A stretch of 64,000 nucleotides of DNA from Candidatus Omnitrophota bacterium (GTDB lineage Bacteria > Omnitrophota > Gorgyraeia > 2-01-FULL-45-10): assembly GCA_041648975.1 (NCBI GenBank), contig JBAZNZ010000002.1, forward strand, positions 8,222-72,221, written 5' to 3'. The notes below the pieces were generated by a model. It saw only the letters and a list, made by a program, of their open reading frames with translations, made no database searches and was not told where the DNA came from. Positions 1 to 62,045 of the stretch are shown here, piece after piece; the first letter of the stretch is position 1, and each line of letters starts with the position of its first letter. Made by a program: the position numbers and the translations under genes.

Positions 1-754
1 CGTTGGAATCGTTAAAATATACCTGGTTCGTCATCCTTAACTTGGTTATGTCCGTCGGAAAGAAGCCCAGCTCATGCTCGACAAGGTTTCGCGTATCGAC
101 TCTCAGCTTTGAACCTTTGTTCCCGTTCGCAAGCCTCGCTTTCCTGCCGGTGTAATCCCTGCCAAGAAATCTGTATGTGACCTTCTGGTATATCCTCTTC
201 GTTATCTTATGCTTGATGCTCGTATTCACCTCGTTGCCTATAAAAGTGCCGTTCGTGTCGTGGGAGAACCACAACCCCTCAAAACCGTATCCGACACTCA
301 GCGTAAACATATCGAAGAGGCCCTGTTCTATACCGGCATAAGCATTCCCGTCGAGCATGTTGACATCGTTGATCCTGAAATAATTCACATTCATCATATT
401 AAAACCGAAATAGGAGCCCATCGGCCCGTATTTAAAATCATTTAAGGGATATTTGAAATCCATCCCCGCCGTCTCCTGGACATATCCGTCGCTCTTCTTG
501 TTGGAATTAAAGAGCGGGTTGGTGTCCAATCCCATCGTCACACCGACGATGGAATTGGCGGAGAGCTTATCCTTGGACGGGACGGTCCTTTGCCTTTGCA
601 TAAGGAACCTTTCAGTCGGCCTGGTCACAACTTTATATTTCGGCTCCTGCTCCTCCACCGTATCCGTCGCGGCGAGTATCGGGCCCGCTGAAAATGAAAA
701 AGCAACGCACAGAAGCAACATTAAAGCTTTCTTCCATCCAGAAATATTTCTCAT
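1..754 (-). CDS. Outer-membrane beta-barrel-like protein with signal peptide; 3' end runs off the window edge (partial)
   Basis: Minus-strand ATG at 754-752 preceded by a GGAGG ribosome-binding site. Translation starts MRNISGWKKALMLLLCVAFSFSAGPILAATD (signal peptide) and continues with alternating hydrophobic/Gly/aromatic beta-strand pattern (YAGIEQGLFDMFTLSVGYGFEGLWF). Absent from the ORF track only because no stop codon falls inside the window. Confidence 0.5.
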   Translation of the reverse strand, partial: MRNISGWKKALMLLLCVAFSFSAGPILAATDTVEEQEPKYKVVTRPTERFLMQRQRTVPSKDKLSANSIVGVTMGLDTNPLFNSNKKSDGYVQETAGMDFKYPLNDFKYGPMGSYFGFNMMNVNYFRINDVNMLDGNAYAGIEQGLFDMFTLSVGYGFEGLWFSHDTNGTFIGNEVNTSIKHKITKRIYQKVTYRFLGRDYTGRKARLANGNKGSKLRVDTRNLVEHELGFFPTDITKLRMTNQVYFNDSN

Positions 755-1597: not shown

Positions 1598-2236
1598 CTA
1601 TTTGCTCCCCTTCATTAAAAGTTTCCATGGATGGCGCTTTATATCCTCGCTGAATTCCTTGAAATTTACCGTGGTCTGTTCCAGGTTATTGGCGATGTTG
1701 CCTATATGTTCCTTATTGTCTTTGACTACGCCTGTTACATTTTCGGCCAGAAGCTTGACCTCTGCCAGGGTCTTGTCCAGGTTCTCGGCTATCGCATCCG
1801 CCCTCTTCATGAGTTTTCTCATCTCTATAGGGTCTTCGCTTAATAGGACCGCCCCGTCTTTAACAAATGGCTTTTCAACCGAACCGGAAGTGATACCTAT
1901 ATAGGCGTCCCCTATCATGCCGGACGTGGATATGAAAGCGACCGAGTCCTCATGTATCCTGGCAGTGTCTTTGATAGAGAGGACGAGCTCTATCTTTGTC
2001 TCCGGCACATACTGGAACGCTATGCTGTTCACGCGGCCGACTTCTATGCCGGCAAGCTTTACAATGGAGTCTATCTTTATGCCTTCAGCGTAATTGAAGT
2101 AGGTCTTCACCTTATACGGCTTACTTTTAAAATCGGTGGTCTTTACCCAGAAAGTAAGCCCCACTACTATCGCCGTGATGACTATTACGCCTGTCTTCAT
2201 CTCATTATTTATCTTCATCTCATTTCCTTTCATCAA
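1598..2236 (-). CDS. mlaD: MlaD-like MCE-domain substrate-binding protein
   Basis: N-terminal TM helix followed by an Mce/MlaD-type domain (KVKTYFNYAEGIKIDSIVKLAGIEVGRVNSI). Located after the mlaF and mlaE homologues. Confidence 0.8.
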   Translation of the reverse strand: MMKGNEMKINNEMKTGVIVITAIVVGLTFWVKTTDFKSKPYKVKTYFNYAEGIKIDSIVKLAGIEVGRVNSIAFQYVPETKIELVLSIKDTARIHEDSVAFISTSGMIGDAYIGITSGSVEKPFVKDGAVLLSEDPIEMRKLMKRADAIAENLDKTLAEVKLLAENVTGVVKDNKEHIGNIANNLEQTTVNFKEFSEDIKRHPWKLLMKGSK

Positions 2237-36465: not shown

Positions 36466-36599
36466 CTTCCCTTCTCCTTTTTAAATGAGGCCTCAACTTA
36501 TGGAGCGATAGCGAACATAAGTTGTCCGGATTGCTCAAACGTTGGGCCGAATTTAATGCCGAAAGATACATTTAAAAAGCCCATGCTTTTCGATACAAA

Positions 36600-42288: not shown

Positions 42289-42602
42289 CCCGCACCTTCC
42301 TTCCTTAAATTTAACGTTGTATTTTATAAAGAGATTTTTTTACAATACCTTTCCCGCACCAAAAGATATTAGAAGGTGCGGGGTTTATGTGGATGCTGCC
42401 TCCTATTTTATTCTAGCGTCAGATTTGCGTACAAATTTGATATTGAGGCAGCGCTAAGAAATGCGAACGAATAGTGAGCATTTTAGCTGCCGAAATATCT
42501 TACCCGTCACCCCCGCGCGTTGTTATAGGTCCTTCGTCGGACTACTATCTAACCGTATCCTCCTCAGGATCATTTTTTACCCGAGTTAGACTATTGTAAA
42601 AA

Positions 42603-42677
42603 ATGGAGCGGCGGATGGGTTTCGAACCCACGACATCGACCTTGGCAAGGTCGCATTCTACCACTGAATTACCGCCG
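42603..42677 (-). tRNA. tRNA-Gly (GCC)
   Basis: Reverse complement GCGGCGGTAATTCAGTGGTAGAATGCGACCTTGCCAAGGTCGATGTCGTGGGTTCGAAACCCATCCGCCGCTCCA. Cloverleaf with anticodon loop TTGCCAA. CCA is encoded. Confidence 0.9.
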
Positions 42678-42957
42678 CTTTTGCAAAGCAAAAGCGATGC
42701 TGAGCTAGCCATGAAGCGCGACGAACAGGAGCGCTTCAGGCGACGCGAAGCACCTATGCTTCGACTAAAATATAATTGCGCTAAAGTCTGACCGCTTGCC
42801 CGTGAACTGATCCTAGGTCCTTCGTTGGCCTACAGTTTGACTCCAGCCTCCTCAGGATCTTTCTCTTCATATTGTCTATAGGTATTTCAGCCGCTAAAAT
42901 CCTTCCTTTGGTCGGATTTCTTTACGCGGCTTCAATATCAAAATTGCTTCGCAATTT

Positions 42958-43033
42958 TGGTGCCCGCACCAAGAATCGAACTTGGAACCTTGACATTAAG
43001 AGTGTCCTGCTCTGCCAATTGAGCTATGCGGGC
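42958..43033 (-). tRNA. tRNA-Lys (CTT)
   Basis: Reverse complement GCCCGCATAGCTCAATTGGCAGAGCAGGACACTCTTAATGTCAAGGTTCCAAGTTCGATTCTTGGTGCGGGCACCA. Anticodon loop CTCTTAA. Confidence 0.85.
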
Positions 43034-43150
43034 AATCTCAGTCAGTTTTAGCGCAATAAATTGTTGAGCCTAAACCCGACCTTAAACTATTCATGGCGAA
43101 ATCCGCCGAAGCACCTTCTAGCTTGCGCCTTGATTGCGGAGGCGGAAGCT
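43034..43150. repeat. Partial tandem duplication of the tRNA-Lys upstream unit, ending in a copy of the first 12 nt of the tRNA
   Basis: The unit is homologous to the tRNA-Arg 120-bp repeat (ATTGTTGAGCCTAAACCCGACCTTAAACTATTCATGGCGAAATCCGCCGAAGC...). It ends GAAGCTATGCGGGCG, matching the tRNA-Lys 5' end AGCTATGCGGGC. Confidence 0.65.
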
Positions 43151-43523
43151 ATGCGGGCGTCGCGAAAACCGTCCTGCTATATCGCTCCTTAGAAGGAAAC
43201 CTAGGTTTCCTTCTAACGTCCCGCCAGGACTATAACTCTGGGCGGGACTGTTTTCCTTCCTCTAACTTTAACACCAAAAACAAAAAAAGCATGGAATAAA
43301 ATTCGCTATATCTAAAAATCCCTAGTTGCTTAGAGCGATAATTATATCAAAATCATAAATTAAATGCAATAAATTCTATTAGATATGGCAAAATACGTAA
43401 TTTAGCCAATTTTATTCTGACTATTTCATTCCACTCGAGCTGATATAGGTCCTTCGTCGAACCGCAGTCTAACTCAATCCTCCTCAGGATCAAATTTTAC
43501 CTGAGTGAGACTGCAGTAAAATT

Positions 43524-43608
43524 TGGTGCGGGCGAAGGGATTTGAACCCCCAAGCCTTGCGGCATACGGTCCTAAGCCGTACACGTCTGCCAATTCCGTC
43601 ACGCCCGC
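43524..43608 (-). tRNA. tRNA-Leu (TAG), long variable arm
   Basis: Reverse complement GCGGGCGTGACGGAATTGGCAGACGTGTACGGCTTAGGACCGTATGCCGCAAGGCTTGGGGGTTCAAATCCCTTCGCCCGCACCA. Anticodon loop CTTAGGA. Confidence 0.85.
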
Positions 43609-43929
43609 GTAAGTCCACTTAAGTCACATCGTCAGAGTTTAGGTATTTTGTGCATTGCGCTGTTGTATTCGCTTTGCGCAAGGCCAATTCCGCCACTTCT
43701 ATCTGACTGGATATCTCTTGCACTTCCAGCCTAAGTGACGGGCCACGTCCGCTGAAATTTATGTATAAATTTCATCCCGAGGCTGCGACAAATCGGAGCA
43801 GCCGAGGGAATACATCTTAAGTCAAATCGTCAAAGTATATTACAGTTTTTTATCTGTAGCCCCTCGCAGCTTGACTAAAATACATGCTGCTCGGGACAAA
43901 TTTCGCCTGAGTTAGGCTGCGGCAAAATT

Positions 43930-44006
43930 TGGCGCGCCCGGGGTGAATCGAACACCCAGCCTACTGGTTCGAAGCCAGCCACTCTATCCAATTGAGCTAC
44001 GGGCGC
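43930..44006 (-). tRNA. tRNA-Arg (TCG)
   Basis: Reverse complement GCGCCCGTAGCTCAATTGGATAGAGTGGCTGGCTTCGAACCAGTAGGCTGGGTGTTCGATTCACCCCGGGCGCGCCA. Anticodon loop CTTCGAA. Confidence 0.85.
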
Positions 44007-44246
44007 TTTTACTCAAATAAGCACAAAAATTGTTGAGCCTAAACCCGACCCTAAACTATTCATGGCGAAATCCGCCGAAGCTTCAACCGGTATCGCTGAT
44101 TCAGCGAAGGCGGAAGCTACGGGCGCTTTTACTCAAATAAGCGCAAAAATTGTTGAGCCTAAACCCGACCCTAAACTATTCATGGCGAAATCCGCCGAAG
44201 CTTCAACCGGTATCGCTGATTCAGCGAAGGCGGAAGCTGCGGGCGC
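44007..44246. repeat. Two tandem 120-bp copies of the tRNA-Arg upstream region, each ending with the first 12 nt of tRNA-Arg
   Basis: Period measured from AAACCCGACC at 44041 and again at 44161. Both units end GGCGGAAGCTACGGGCGC (unit 2 reads GCTGCGGGCGC). The tRNA 5' end is AGCTACGGGCGC. Confidence 0.8.
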
Positions 44247-44394
44247 TCTTTAAAAGGTCCGCCTCTTTCAACCTGCCGCCGCGCAGGCCGCTATTCGCGG
44301 CATTTACGATCGCCTCCACATCCTCATTCGTTATGTCGCCCTGTTTTATCGTAATCATCCGGCAAAAGGCGCCTTACGCCTGATATTCTACTCT

Positions 44395-61970: not shown

Positions 61971-62045
61971 TGAAATTTCCCCTTTTTTCGCTATGAAATT
62001 TCATCCCGAGCCGCTGTCATCTAATTCCCGCGGCGAGGGACTACC

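Follow-up and report, generated by a model that had tools for sequence, protein, structure and literature searches.

Structured hairpin spacers at tRNA gene borders in Omnitrophota and their association with a small GIY-YIG nuclease gene

rRNA IVS are extra hairpins at peripheral helices, which occur sporadically among strains and are presumably removed or tolerated. Copies of a tRNA 3' end beside the intact gene are known from the tRNA sites of genomic islands and from the 178-bp repeats of E. coli tyrT. REPINs consist of short imperfect palindromes, present singly or as inverted doublets that form a larger hairpin, with a variable spacer, A/T-rich ends and mosaics (PMC3337134). SegB, a phage GIY-YIG endonuclease associated with tRNA genes, is a driver of recombination and tandem amplification at these sites (PMC13096335).

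Here, we analyse the surroundings of four tRNA genes in a 64,000-nt stretch of DNA from a Candidatus Omnitrophota bacterium (the window). All four genes encode their CCA end:

42604-42678, minus strand: tRNA-Gly (GCC), found by ARAGORN and the Rfam tRNA family
42958-43033, minus strand: tRNA-Lys (CTT), found by ARAGORN and the Rfam tRNA family
43524-43608, minus strand: tRNA-Leu (TAG), found by ARAGORN and the Rfam tRNA family
43930-44006, minus strand: tRNA-Arg (TCG), found by ARAGORN and the Rfam tRNA family (67.4 bits)

As the original prediction had it, these genes form a spaced cluster; they share the minus strand, and the intergenic gaps along Gly-Lys-Leu-Arg measure 280, 491 and 322 nt. 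Six small open reading frames (ORFs) across the cluster region have no Pfam match.

The gaps are occupied by a recurrent hairpin unit. One unit consists of an AU-rich hairpin set against the mature RNA end, followed by a second hairpin that we call the GA platform. The platform is closed by a helix GAUNN/N'N'AYC and further contains a U:A pair, tandem G.A pairs and an inner hairpin that varies; its long form reads GAUCCUGAGGAGG...CGACGAAGGACC. Two units placed tail to tail make a doublet, which fills the spacer of neighbouring tRNAs with its AU hairpins toward the genes. In the window, the CCA of each of the four tRNAs is directly followed by the AU-rich hairpin (P1), and GAUCCUGAGGAGG...CGACGAAGGACC is the second hairpin (P2). 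The modules downstream of the tRNAs, and the one outlying copy, are:

42572-42603, minus strand: P1 of the Gly trailer, an AU-rich hairpin from the first base after CCA (fold; P1 covariation)
42528-42571, minus strand: P2 of the Gly trailer, long form, GATCCTGAGGAGG-N22-CGAAGGACC (88 bits)
42421-42527, no strand given: second half of the post-Gly doublet, with linker (42500-42527), inverted module (42439-42499) and AU hairpin (42421-42438)
42755-42957, minus strand: Lys trailer, with P1' (42940-42957, GCGAAGC loop) and a 59-nt module (42881-42939, GATAT/ATACC variant)
42755-42859, minus strand: remainder of the Lys trailer, with long P2 (42816-42859) and linker (42755-42815)
43448-43523, minus strand: Leu trailer, with P1 (43492-43523) and long P2 (43448-43491) (87.7 bits)
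43859-43929, minus strand: Arg trailer, with P1 (43898-43929) and degenerate P2 (43859-43897) (38.6 bits)
61972-62041, plus strand: the sole module outside the tRNA cluster, with AU hairpin (61972-62002) and CCC-variant module (62003-62041) (18.7 bits)

The scores come from a covariance model built on 45 copies from other contigs together with the window's own Gly and Leu copies. The Gly (42522-42606) and Leu (43442-43526) trailers therefore reach their 88 bits (87.7 for Leu) partly by construction, while Lys (42810-42890, 50.5 bits) and Arg (43853-43932, 38.6 bits, E=6e-8) are independent of model building. The Arg copy is degenerate, its P2 being a 'CCC' variant, GTCCCGAG...CGAGGGGC. The predicted position of the element was correct: what stands 'before' a gene in plus-strand coordinates is downstream of a minus-strand tRNA. 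In the Lys trailer, the P2 core lies about 100 nt from the tRNA with another module in between, and its linker (42755-42815) resembles the 5'UTR of a GIY-YIG ORF found in relatives. The Gly P2 folds as a rod (UCCU/AGGA, tandem G.A, G:C, tandem G.A, GGxx/yyCC). Together with P1 and the second half, whose inverted module at 42439-42499 has its GA strand on the plus strand, it makes a complete tail-to-tail doublet at 42421-42603. Across the 64 kb, the covariance model places every copy in the tRNA cluster except the one at 61972-62041, which sits between two protein-coding genes and has ATCCCGAG...CGAGGGAC as its module. The boxes GATCCTGAGGAGG and ACGAAGGACCTA occur exactly three times each in the 64 kb, always within the cluster; at up to two mismatches, GATCCTGAGGAGG has seven matches in the window against 1.6 in shuffled sequence.

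Upstream of the tRNAs, the picture is more varied:

42679-42754, no strand given: Gly leader, with inverted module (42696-42754, GATGC/GCACC closing-stem variant) and AU hairpin (42679-42695)
43034-43158, minus strand: Lys upstream block, running from a copy of tRNA-Lys nt 1-11 (43148-43158) through a hairpin UCCGCC/GGCGGA and TTTCGCCATGAATAGTTTAAGGTCGGGTTTAGGCTCAACAA to a variable stretch
44007-44246, minus strand: Arg upstream block, two tandem 120-nt copies, 99% identical
43683-43839, minus strand: scar of an older tRNA-Leu 5' end
upper parts of the Leu scar: 24-nt duplicate (43816-43839), inverted CCC-variant module (43775-43809) and AU hairpin (43754-43773)
lower parts of the Leu scar: copies of tRNA-Leu nt 1-11 (43742-43752) and nt 7-20 (43683-43696)

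Gly and Leu share a leader type made of an inverted hairpin module and an AU hairpin, which in Gly (42679-42695) ends at tRNA position -1. This type differs from the upstream block, of which Lys has a single copy and Arg a tandem pair of 120 nt each; the Lys and Arg blocks are 98% identical over 55 nt. Within the Lys block, TTTCGCCATGAATAGTTTAAGGTCGGGTTTAGGCTCAACAA is the conserved part and the stretch from there to the tRNA is variable. The expectation of homologous flanks on both sides of every tRNA thus held for the 3' side, where all four trailers match the covariance model, and failed for the 5' side, where the GTTTAGGCTCAACAA block stands upstream of Lys and Arg only. Each Arg tandem copy starts with a copy of tRNA-Arg nt 1-11 (44116-44126 and 44236-44246). 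The block is likewise joined to the leftover nt 1-11 of its own tRNA in Lys and, in another contig (L133), in Phe. Since the leftover belongs to the own tRNA in three different tRNAs, the block was inserted into pre-existing genes, and such tRNA fragments mark past insertions. Beyond the 11-nt tRNA duplication, the block lacks inverted ends, and conservation does not extend to its 3' end.

The hairpins have the hallmarks of conserved structure. A generic module pattern gave 118 matches against 0-3 in shuffles and revealed five covarying closing-stem variants; paired cells amounted to 90.5%, against at most 52% when the partner was slid, with both-sided changes at nine pairs. The boxes are invariant across many genomes and the stems covary, and P1 is also supported by covariation. 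In the trailers, G-U pairs number 45 of 354 on the sense strand and 9 of 260 on the complement (p=4e-5). The inverted leader modules show no strand signal, a test that is uninformative there because their stems are perfect Watson-Crick helices. A long-range stem between the leader and trailer of one gene (rRNA-type, RNase III) was rejected: the duplex energy of cognate pairs, -17.0 kcal/mol, is no better than the -16.8 kcal/mol of non-cognate ones (permutation p=0.42), and the closing-stem variants of a gene's two flanks usually differ. A kissing or alternative pairing of the P1 loop with the P2 apex was rejected as not general: the Leu copy reaches a striking -19.3 kcal/mol, but cognate pairs stand at -5.3 against -5.4 for non-cognate ones (p=0.56).

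The modules had also been proposed to act as a promoter and terminator pair. The terminator half has some backing in relatives: P1 is a canonical intrinsic terminator, in which a GC stem stands between an A run and a U run, in four homologues (L127, L131, L141 and L148). In the window, a terminator scan at P1 found none, P1 there being AU-rich and lacking a GC stem with a U tract behind it. The promoter half found no backing, as scanning and inspection of the upstream block and the leader modules gave no convincing sigma-70 site.

The family is previously undescribed: even at E values of up to 10, the modules match no family in Rfam 15, and literature searches (sequence strings; Omnitrophota tRNA repeats) found no paper describing the element. 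Rfam matches in the examined sequences were limited to tRNA, tmRNA, RNase P RNA and a group I intron. A weak 17-bit match to Acido-Lenti-1 at 43188-43231 is a palindrome and not that motif. Integron attC sites were rejected on inspection of the alignment, where RYYYAAC ... GTTRRRY boxes are not conserved at module ends. With respect to MITEs, the doublets are inverted repeats, and no target-site duplication is seen at their ends. A BoxA-like CUUUAACA after P2 is present in a subset of copies only, and the conserved linker is the 5'UTR region of the GIY-YIG ORF.

Other Omnitrophota contigs carry the same element. The loci were fetched by module pattern or by GIY-YIG protein, so their frequencies are biased, and some short contigs (e.g. 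L177) may be assembly chimeras. Among 61 distinct long cores in these contigs, 40 adjoin an intact tRNA or tmRNA, at least five stand behind a duplicated 3' fragment of a tRNA, and 13 come after '...CCA' where no tRNA was called (one or more of these being an intron-containing tRNA). The 3' module lies downstream of at least 15 tRNA isotypes and of tmRNA, and modules also occur within P3 and P12 of one RNase P RNA gene. Their polarity is strict: downstream of tRNAs, 52 modules read in the sense direction, some 30 nt beyond CCA; upstream, 21 modules are inverted, with their ends 18-22 nt short of tRNA position +1; and the AU hairpin faces the RNA gene in all cases. No element was seen in rRNA, as the fetched loci contained no rRNA genes. 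Among tRNAs that were not the reason for retrieving a contig, 5 of 31 carry the module. The element is therefore widespread among stable-RNA genes and not universal. These counts speak against both readings that had been left open, since a module at so many isotypes, at tmRNA and in RNase P RNA of other contigs is not confined to the window's cluster, and one at 5 of 31 unselected tRNAs is not a trivial consensus terminator of all tRNAs. Beyond the phylum, repeats with ATCCTGAGGAGG...CGAAGGAC boxes are abundant, interspersed and often in inverted pairs in Sphingomonadales, and also occur in Armatimonadetes, Acidobacteriota and Actinomycetota.

In relatives, the central linker of the doublet holds a stand-alone GIY-YIG ORF of 80-92 aa. 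The ORF matches the PF01541 catalytic domain alone and has no NCBIfam match. It lies between P2 and an inverted module in L124, L134 and L154. Homologues from the protein search (L175, L176, L177 and L179) are inside tRNA clusters with modules on their flanks; overall, the ORF stands between modules in L124, L134, L154, L176, L177 and L179, and between tRNAs in at least six loci. Modules at tmRNA and within RNase P RNA have no ORF nearby. As a tblastn search found no GIY-YIG gene in the 64-kb window, the nuclease link rests on the relatives, whose cassettes align with the window's spacers. The post-Gly doublet aligns to L179 26-79 and 410-491, with the ORF (94-372) missing in the window; the Lys-Gly spacer aligns to L177 33-96 and, at 90%, to L154 387-456; and the Gly leader matches the module that follows the ORF in L154 at 90% identity across 70 nt. 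The window spacers thus match both flanks of GIY-YIG cassettes with the ORF absent. On the reading proposed below, the tRNAs would not each sit in a cassette of their own; the spaces between them would be taken up by miniature derivatives, or empty target sites, of an endonuclease cassette.

Spacer turnover is fast. In a near-identical strain (L173), flanking genes are 100% identical and the whole Lys-to-EIIA spacer is replaced. In a syntenic contig (L084), the paralogous Lys and Arg trailers share 96.5% identity over 85 nt, whereas the orthologous Lys and Arg trailers of the window and L084 share about 65%. Presence also differs among orthologues: Leu has a module in the window and lacks it in L084, and Arg is the reverse. 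Taken together, the sequence comparisons support flanks that are homologous, modular and exchanged among different tRNA genes.

This bears on the idea that whole cassettes were propagated within the cluster and their tRNA bodies replaced. Flank propagation or gene conversion is real, given the Lys/Arg block identity (98%), the L084 trailers and the L173 replacement; replacement of the tRNA body did not stand. A promoter-tRNA-terminator cassette that was duplicated and then swapped its tRNA would account for the near-identical Lys and Arg blocks and the related trailers of all four genes. It would not account for the absence of the block from Gly and Leu, nor for the own-tRNA nt 1-11 leftovers at the block in Lys, Arg and Phe (L133). 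Across many genomes, the trailer is found behind 15 or more isotypes, behind tmRNA and in other contexts, and with RNase P RNA included this means that the spacer element moves and the tRNA does not. We regard the body-swap account as scarcely credible.

We propose, at about even confidence, that the window spacers are either derivatives of a GIY-YIG cassette of tRNA clusters that lack its gene, or empty target sites for it, and that they are spread by recombination and transcribed as structured spacers. This proposal builds on the observed distribution, hairpin covariation, polarity, turnover and GIY-YIG association. The nuclease would drive the spread: cassettes would be copied from one tRNA border to another and made uniform by break-induced recombination, for which the conserved tRNA sequence could provide the homology anchor. 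The ORF lacks a DNA-binding domain like that of Seg or I-TevI, so a homing activity is putative. Modules would be transcribed together with the tRNAs, fold as hairpins and be removed in the course of tRNA maturation; acting in RNA, P1 may be a 3'-end or terminator-type hairpin and P2 is predicted to sequester a GAAGGA Shine-Dalgarno-like box, and we infer any regulatory role from these features. The link could also be reversed, with the nuclease merely targeting a conserved host spacer.

A related possibility, which we consider rather unlikely, is that the host itself selects P1-P2 and the inverted leaders as cis RNA structures that define and protect stable-RNA ends, either as terminator-like hairpins or as platforms with tandem G.A pairs for an RNase or RNA-binding protein, the GIY-YIG gene being a secondary invader. 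Such a signal would explain the strict register, with P1 right after CCA and the leader hairpin ending at -1, as well as the invariant boxes with covarying stems over many genomes, the G-U pairs enriched on the transcribed strand of trailers and the canonical terminators in L127, L131, L141 and L148. The window's other intergenic regions, with one exception, are also free of modules. However, a host signal would hardly be carried by just 5 of 31 tRNAs not used for contig retrieval, differ between the window and L084 at Leu and Arg, or be swapped between near-identical strains (L173). The leader modules are inverted and their RNA therefore has no G.A pairs, and their stems are perfect Watson-Crick. 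RNase P substrates are usually without a stable hairpin ending at position -1, which makes such a leader unusual. A further reading takes P2 for a catalytic or ribonucleoprotein RNA (a small self-cleaving ribozyme that cuts the trailer, or a K-turn bound by an L7Ae-type protein). Small ribozymes typically combine an invariant core with variable stems, CUGAGGA...GAA recalls the cores of hammerhead and box C/D RNAs, and inspection of the alphaproteobacterial version allows a drawing with C-stem, 3-nt bulge, tandem G.A and NC-stem. P12 of RNase P RNA, where GA modules occur in one gene here, is a position at which archaeal K-turns are bound by L7Ae. Against this, searches at E up to 10 matched no family of ribozymes or of K-turn-containing RNAs, and covariation in the Omnitrophota long form, which is symmetric (GAGGA / GACGA), fits a continuous rod with no three-way junction or 3-nt bulge. 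A hammerhead cleaving after CCA was rejected on inspection, as hammerhead positions A14 and A15.1 are not satisfied and extra nucleotides stand between stem I and C3, in addition to the rod pairing and the missing Rfam match. Overall, a catalytic or K-turn P2 is very improbable.

The same hairpins may be viewed as DNA. On that view they would be selfish palindromes of REP/REPIN type that a Y1 (RAYT) transposase mobilises and inserts preferentially at stable-RNA genes; both the single units and the inverted doublets would fold into hairpins when the DNA is single-stranded. Singlets and tail-to-tail doublets agree with this, as do a spacer that varies without loss of the hairpin, terminal A/T runs and the ATCCTGAGGAGG...CGAAGGAC repeats of Sphingomonadales, often in inverted pairs, and of three further phyla. 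Very stable DNA hairpins, too, feature GAA triloops and tandem G.A pairs. Yet the copies are not dispersed, all but one in 64 kb being in the tRNA cluster, and the G-U pairs abundant on one strand of the trailers would, at the DNA level, become G-T mismatches. The candidate transposase is a single Y1_Tnp ORF at the edge of L179/L180, with a module about 0.9 kb away. A REPIN-type origin is thus improbable, if less so than a catalytic P2.

If the GIY-YIG cassette reading is true, a small nuclease cassette, together with its miniature derivatives, shapes the tRNA clusters of a phylum about which little is known. This reading would explain hypervariable tRNA spacers between near-identical strains and the assembly breaks there. 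It would also mean an uncatalogued, strongly structured RNA/DNA motif that annotators now miss or translate as spurious ORFs. Tentatively, and with more doubt than for the spacers themselves, this could be an undescribed mobile system in which a minimal GIY-YIG nuclease, inverted GA-platform hairpins and gene-less miniatures colonise stable-RNA borders and peripheral helices in Omnitrophota. The ATCCTGAGGAGG...CGAAGGAC core in other phyla would point to cross-phylum structured elements or to a common host factor for tandem G.A pairs. Since the tandem-G.A platform recurs across several phyla, following it could lead to a recognition factor, or a mechanism of mobility, that they share.

How, then, does the element compare with known systems? 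Hairpins immediately after a tRNA with A and U runs at their sides recall the terminators and 3' external transcribed spacers of tRNA operons, except that a second, sequence-conserved hairpin always follows P1. Like rRNA IVS, modules occupy peripheral positions (P3 and P12) of an RNase P RNA gene; unlike them, they lie mainly outside the mature RNA, in leader and trailer. Genomic-island sites and tyrT have tRNA 3'-end copies, which are also found here together with 5'-end copies, but here the inserts are non-coding and about 50-150 nt long, no integrase is seen, and the 5' duplications span tRNA nt 1 to nt 11 in three different tRNAs. As in REP/REPIN/BIME elements, modules are imperfect palindromes in both orientations, with a doublet at 42421-42603; they differ in standing at stable-RNA borders with fixed polarity, in a core without a GTAG-type head and in being associated with a GIY-YIG nuclease. 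The nearest parallel is SegB of phages T4/T6, a GIY-YIG gene that likewise lies between tRNA genes of many isotypes, in a tRNA region marked by recombination, tandem amplification and preferential inheritance (PMC13096335). The partial tRNA duplications and tandem repeat of our locus resemble that region. In contrast to SegB, the gene is found on a bacterial chromosome, its ORF of 80-92 aa is predicted to be a catalytic domain alone, and it is bracketed by inverted hairpin modules whose ORF-less miniatures are far commoner. The cassette reading, if true, would extend the phage association of SegB with tRNA genes to bacterial chromosomes.

The four tRNA genes of the cluster are flanked by a GH3-family gene on one side and a PTS EIIA gene on the other, in what is otherwise an ordinary bacterial chromosome segment (the ENA contig L172 matches the window at 100% identity). 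Their features, and the only copy in the window of the element described below that lies outside the cluster, are:

43930-44006, minus strand: tRNA-Arg (TCG), CCA encoded, Rfam match
43524-43608, minus strand: tRNA-Leu (TAG), CCA encoded, Rfam match
42958-43033, minus strand: tRNA-Lys (CTT), CCA encoded, Rfam match
42604-42678, minus strand: tRNA-Gly (GCC), CCA encoded, Rfam match
61972-62041: weak module copy between protein-coding genes

An AU-rich hairpin, P1, directly follows the CCA of all four tRNAs. After Gly and Leu, it leads immediately into a second, sequence-conserved hairpin of 44 nt, P2 (GATCCTGAGGAGG-N22-CGAAGGACC), whose two boxes occur three times each in 64 kb, always within the cluster. 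The Arg trailer carries P1 and a degenerate P2 (GTCCCGAG...CGAGGGGC); the Lys trailer has a short P1 (GCGAAGC loop), then a different 59-nt module (a GA-platform hairpin unit), and P2 ~100 nt from the tRNA. The original prediction of a related 3' element after each tRNA is borne out: a covariance model of P1-P2, built on 45 copies (43 from other contigs plus the window's own Gly and Leu copies), matches all four trailers (Gly 88, Leu 88, Lys 50.5 and Arg 38.6 bits). The promoter-like block predicted upstream of each tRNA survives only in part. Specifically, GGTCGGGTTTAGGCTCAACAA occurs once upstream of Lys and twice upstream of Arg (as a 120-nt tandem repeat); Gly and Leu lack it. The intergenic region beside metK (36483-36554, plus strand) holds what may be another tandem-G.A hairpin, AAATGAGGCC...GGCCGAATTT; the loose pattern that picked it up is not enriched over shuffles.

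Most copies fold into two consecutive hairpins. In the alignment of 45 copies, 90.5% of paired cells are complementary, compared to no more than 52% once the partner column is shifted. P1 (pairs 12:34, 13:33) and P2 both contain pairs changed on the two sides; in P2, pair 54:74 is CG in 33 copies, AU in 10 and UA in one. The P2 rod runs through UCCU/AGGA, tandem G.A, G:C, tandem G.A and GGxx/yyCC to a bulged G and an apex that varies. In shorter relatives, all that is retained is GAUNN-UGA...GAA-N'N'AYC, a pattern with 118 matches in 368 kb of Omnitrophota sequence versus 0-3 in shuffles, and its closing-stem variants (CC/GG, AT/AT, GC/GC, AC/GT and CT/GG) are themselves covariation. G-U pairs are in excess on the tRNA strand of trailer modules (45/354 vs 9/260 on the complement, p=4e-5), which indicates a hairpin shaped on the transcribed strand. 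A leader shows no preference for pairing with the trailer of its own gene (p=0.42). Complementarity between the P1 loop and P2 apex is present in the Leu copy but is not general (p=0.56).

Modules also obey a polarity rule. Downstream of tRNAs they stand in sense orientation, ~30 nt after the CCA (52 cases); upstream they stand inverted and stop 18-22 nt short of +1, and an AU hairpin lies in the gap (21 cases). In the window, the upstream rule holds for the Gly leader (42679-42754) and for the displaced leader that belongs to an older tRNA-Leu 5' end (43754-43809). Joined tail to tail, a trailer unit and an inverted unit form a doublet, of which a complete example follows Gly (42421-42603). 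A perfect palindrome of 28 nt, TTAGAAGGAAACCTAGGTTTCCTTCTAA (43189-43216), lies upstream of the Lys block and looks like two module ends (GAAGGA..CC and GG..TCCTTC) joined tail to tail.

A two-box scan of the genome collection yielded more than 120 loci, and a stricter metagenome scan 51 Omnitrophota-type contigs. Among 61 distinct long cores, 40 lie directly next to an intact tRNA or tmRNA, at least five follow a duplicated tRNA 3' fragment and 13 follow a '...CCA' without a called tRNA. In one of these 13 cases, a group I intron splits the tRNA, whose 3' end abuts P1-P2 (L135:512-710, plus strand, Rfam 64.9 bits). On whether such flanks are confined to this cluster or borne by all tRNAs, the answer is neither: they occur elsewhere at at least 15 isotypes (Lys, Met, Gln, Asp, Phe, Thr, Arg, Asn, Ala, Gly, Val, Cys, Leu, Glu and Tyr), yet a module lies within 130 nt of only 5/31 tRNAs that were not the reason for retrieving their contig, so the element is not universal. 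Orthologous clusters disagree on which tRNA carries a module. Other stable RNAs are involved as well. tmRNA has modules on both sides in two contigs (L020 and L138), and a bona fide type-A RNase P RNA gene (L147:2971-3463, plus strand, Rfam 148 bits) contains an inverted 59-nt module with AU hairpin at P3 and a full doublet in place of the P12-P14 region. No Rfam family covers any form of the element, and our literature search found no paper on it.

Fragments of tRNA accompany the elements. Every upstream-block copy is preceded by a duplicate of nt 1-11 of the cognate tRNA, and tRNA-Phe in L133 has the same block with the same junction; the block hairpin covaries between the two (UCCUCC/GGAGGA in L133 vs UCCGCC/GGCGGA in the window). 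Upstream of the window's Leu gene are copies of tRNA-Leu nt 1-11 and nt 7-20. These 5' fragments look like scars left where insertions entered the 5' part of genes already in place. In relatives, the 3' side has an insert of 100-150 nt that separates the intact tRNA from a duplicate of the tRNA's final 17-27 nt, with P1-P2 coming after the duplicate. A second recurrent element in this position, without a match in Rfam, is:

L140:435-610, L151, L152, L162, L163:2664-2848, L165 and L173:160-320: element of 110-150 nt containing ...GAAGCTCGCG..CGCCGACCAACGGGAGGAAAAGGCCTCCGGCCGACAG...

L133 also holds a 'mini-tRNA' (335-375, minus strand; GCCGAG-ATCCTTCGCTTCGCTCAGGATC-GGCACCA), in which a 22-nt minimal module joins the first 6 nt of tRNA-Phe to its last 7 nt plus CCA; it lies upstream of both the upstream block and the intact tRNA-Phe.

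In three relatives (L124, L134 and L154), an ORF of 80-84 aa, comprising a GIY-YIG catalytic domain only, sits exactly between a sense P2 and inverted module(s). A protein search returned 83 homologues, several of them named Omnitrophota GIY-YIG nucleases and most on very short contigs. Contexts retrieved by protein similarity, not by module, repeat the order tRNA-P1-P2-ORF-inverted module-AU hairpin-tRNA (L176/L178, L177, L179/L180 and the complete genome CP070780.1, L175); a homologue with 53% identity (L181) has neither tRNAs nor modules there. The window's spacers align to both cassette flanks, with the ORF missing. In four loci, GAAGGAYC lies 8-12 nt before the GIY-YIG start codon, so the P2 3' box could double as a ribosome-binding site, paired with UCCU in the hairpin.

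Individual cassettes show further rearrangements. In L134, a 37-nt unit (the 3' half of P2) is present in five tandem copies before the ORF (1845-2030, plus strand); after the ORF (2331-2624) there is one short inverted module plus a tandem array of three 59-nt modules, also inverted and each accompanied by an AU hairpin. L177 and L178 are 100% identical from the GIY-YIG 5'UTR through the ORF, module, tRNA-Asp and beyond, and differ in their upstream tRNAs (Arg-CCT vs Val-TAC), each with its own P1-P2; both are ~750 nt and could be assembly chimeras. A Y1 transposase (PF01797) ORF, possibly a RAYT-like partner, starts ~0.9 kb downstream of the tRNA-Asp trailer module in L179 and L180 (2667-2679 in each, minus strand).

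The spacers turn over rapidly. L173 (NCBI assembly GCA_028715235.1) matches the window at 100% identity across at least 1287 nt of EIIA-CofD, as well as across tRNA-Lys and its upstream block. The stretch of ~670 nt between the Lys CCA and the EIIA start codon is different (L173:160-838 vs window 42289-42957): L173 has another insert and other P2 variants there, and identity around tRNA-Gly is only 82%. Within one population, this tRNA spacer is hypervariable. Contig L084 is syntenic with the window; this synteny, along with how related proteins are named, assigns the lineage to Candidatus Omnitrophota. The paralogous Lys and Arg trailers of L084 share 96.5% identity across 85 nt, versus ~65% (Lys and Arg) and ~81% (Gly) for orthologous trailers between the two contigs.

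Judging from sequence, the window's tRNA spacers may quite plausibly be gene-less derivatives, or empty target sites, of a putative tRNA-cluster endonuclease cassette. The spacer elements would move by break-induced recombination that uses conserved tRNA sequence as its anchor. Such recombination would account for their spread to many isotypes, the homogenisation of paralogs, the swapping of alleles between strains, the tandem repeat and the partially duplicated tRNAs. The main rival, in which the modules serve the host as processing or termination signals and the nuclease merely targets them, strikes us as rather unlikely. The strict register and strand-specific G-U pairs favour an RNA role, and the patchy distribution and rapid replacement of the modules speak against its being essential.

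The same boxes extend beyond Omnitrophota. Acidobacteriota, Armatimonadetes and Actinomycetota have GTCATCCTGAG-hairpin-CGAAGGAT forms that do not adjoin tRNAs. Sphingomonadales and other Alphaproteobacteria have abundant interspersed repeats with the same boxes, in many copies per genome and usually as inverted pairs:

Within L001-L120, e.g. L018:3402-3447 and L114:1206-1850: alphaproteobacterial form, GCTCATCCTGAGGAGG-hairpin-CGTCTCGAAGGAC

The shared boxes may reflect common descent or shared constraint. Among known systems, the modules resemble REPIN doublets (PMC3337134) and rRNA intervening sequences, and recombination of the proposed kind around tRNA genes is described for the phage GIY-YIG enzyme SegB (PMC13096335).
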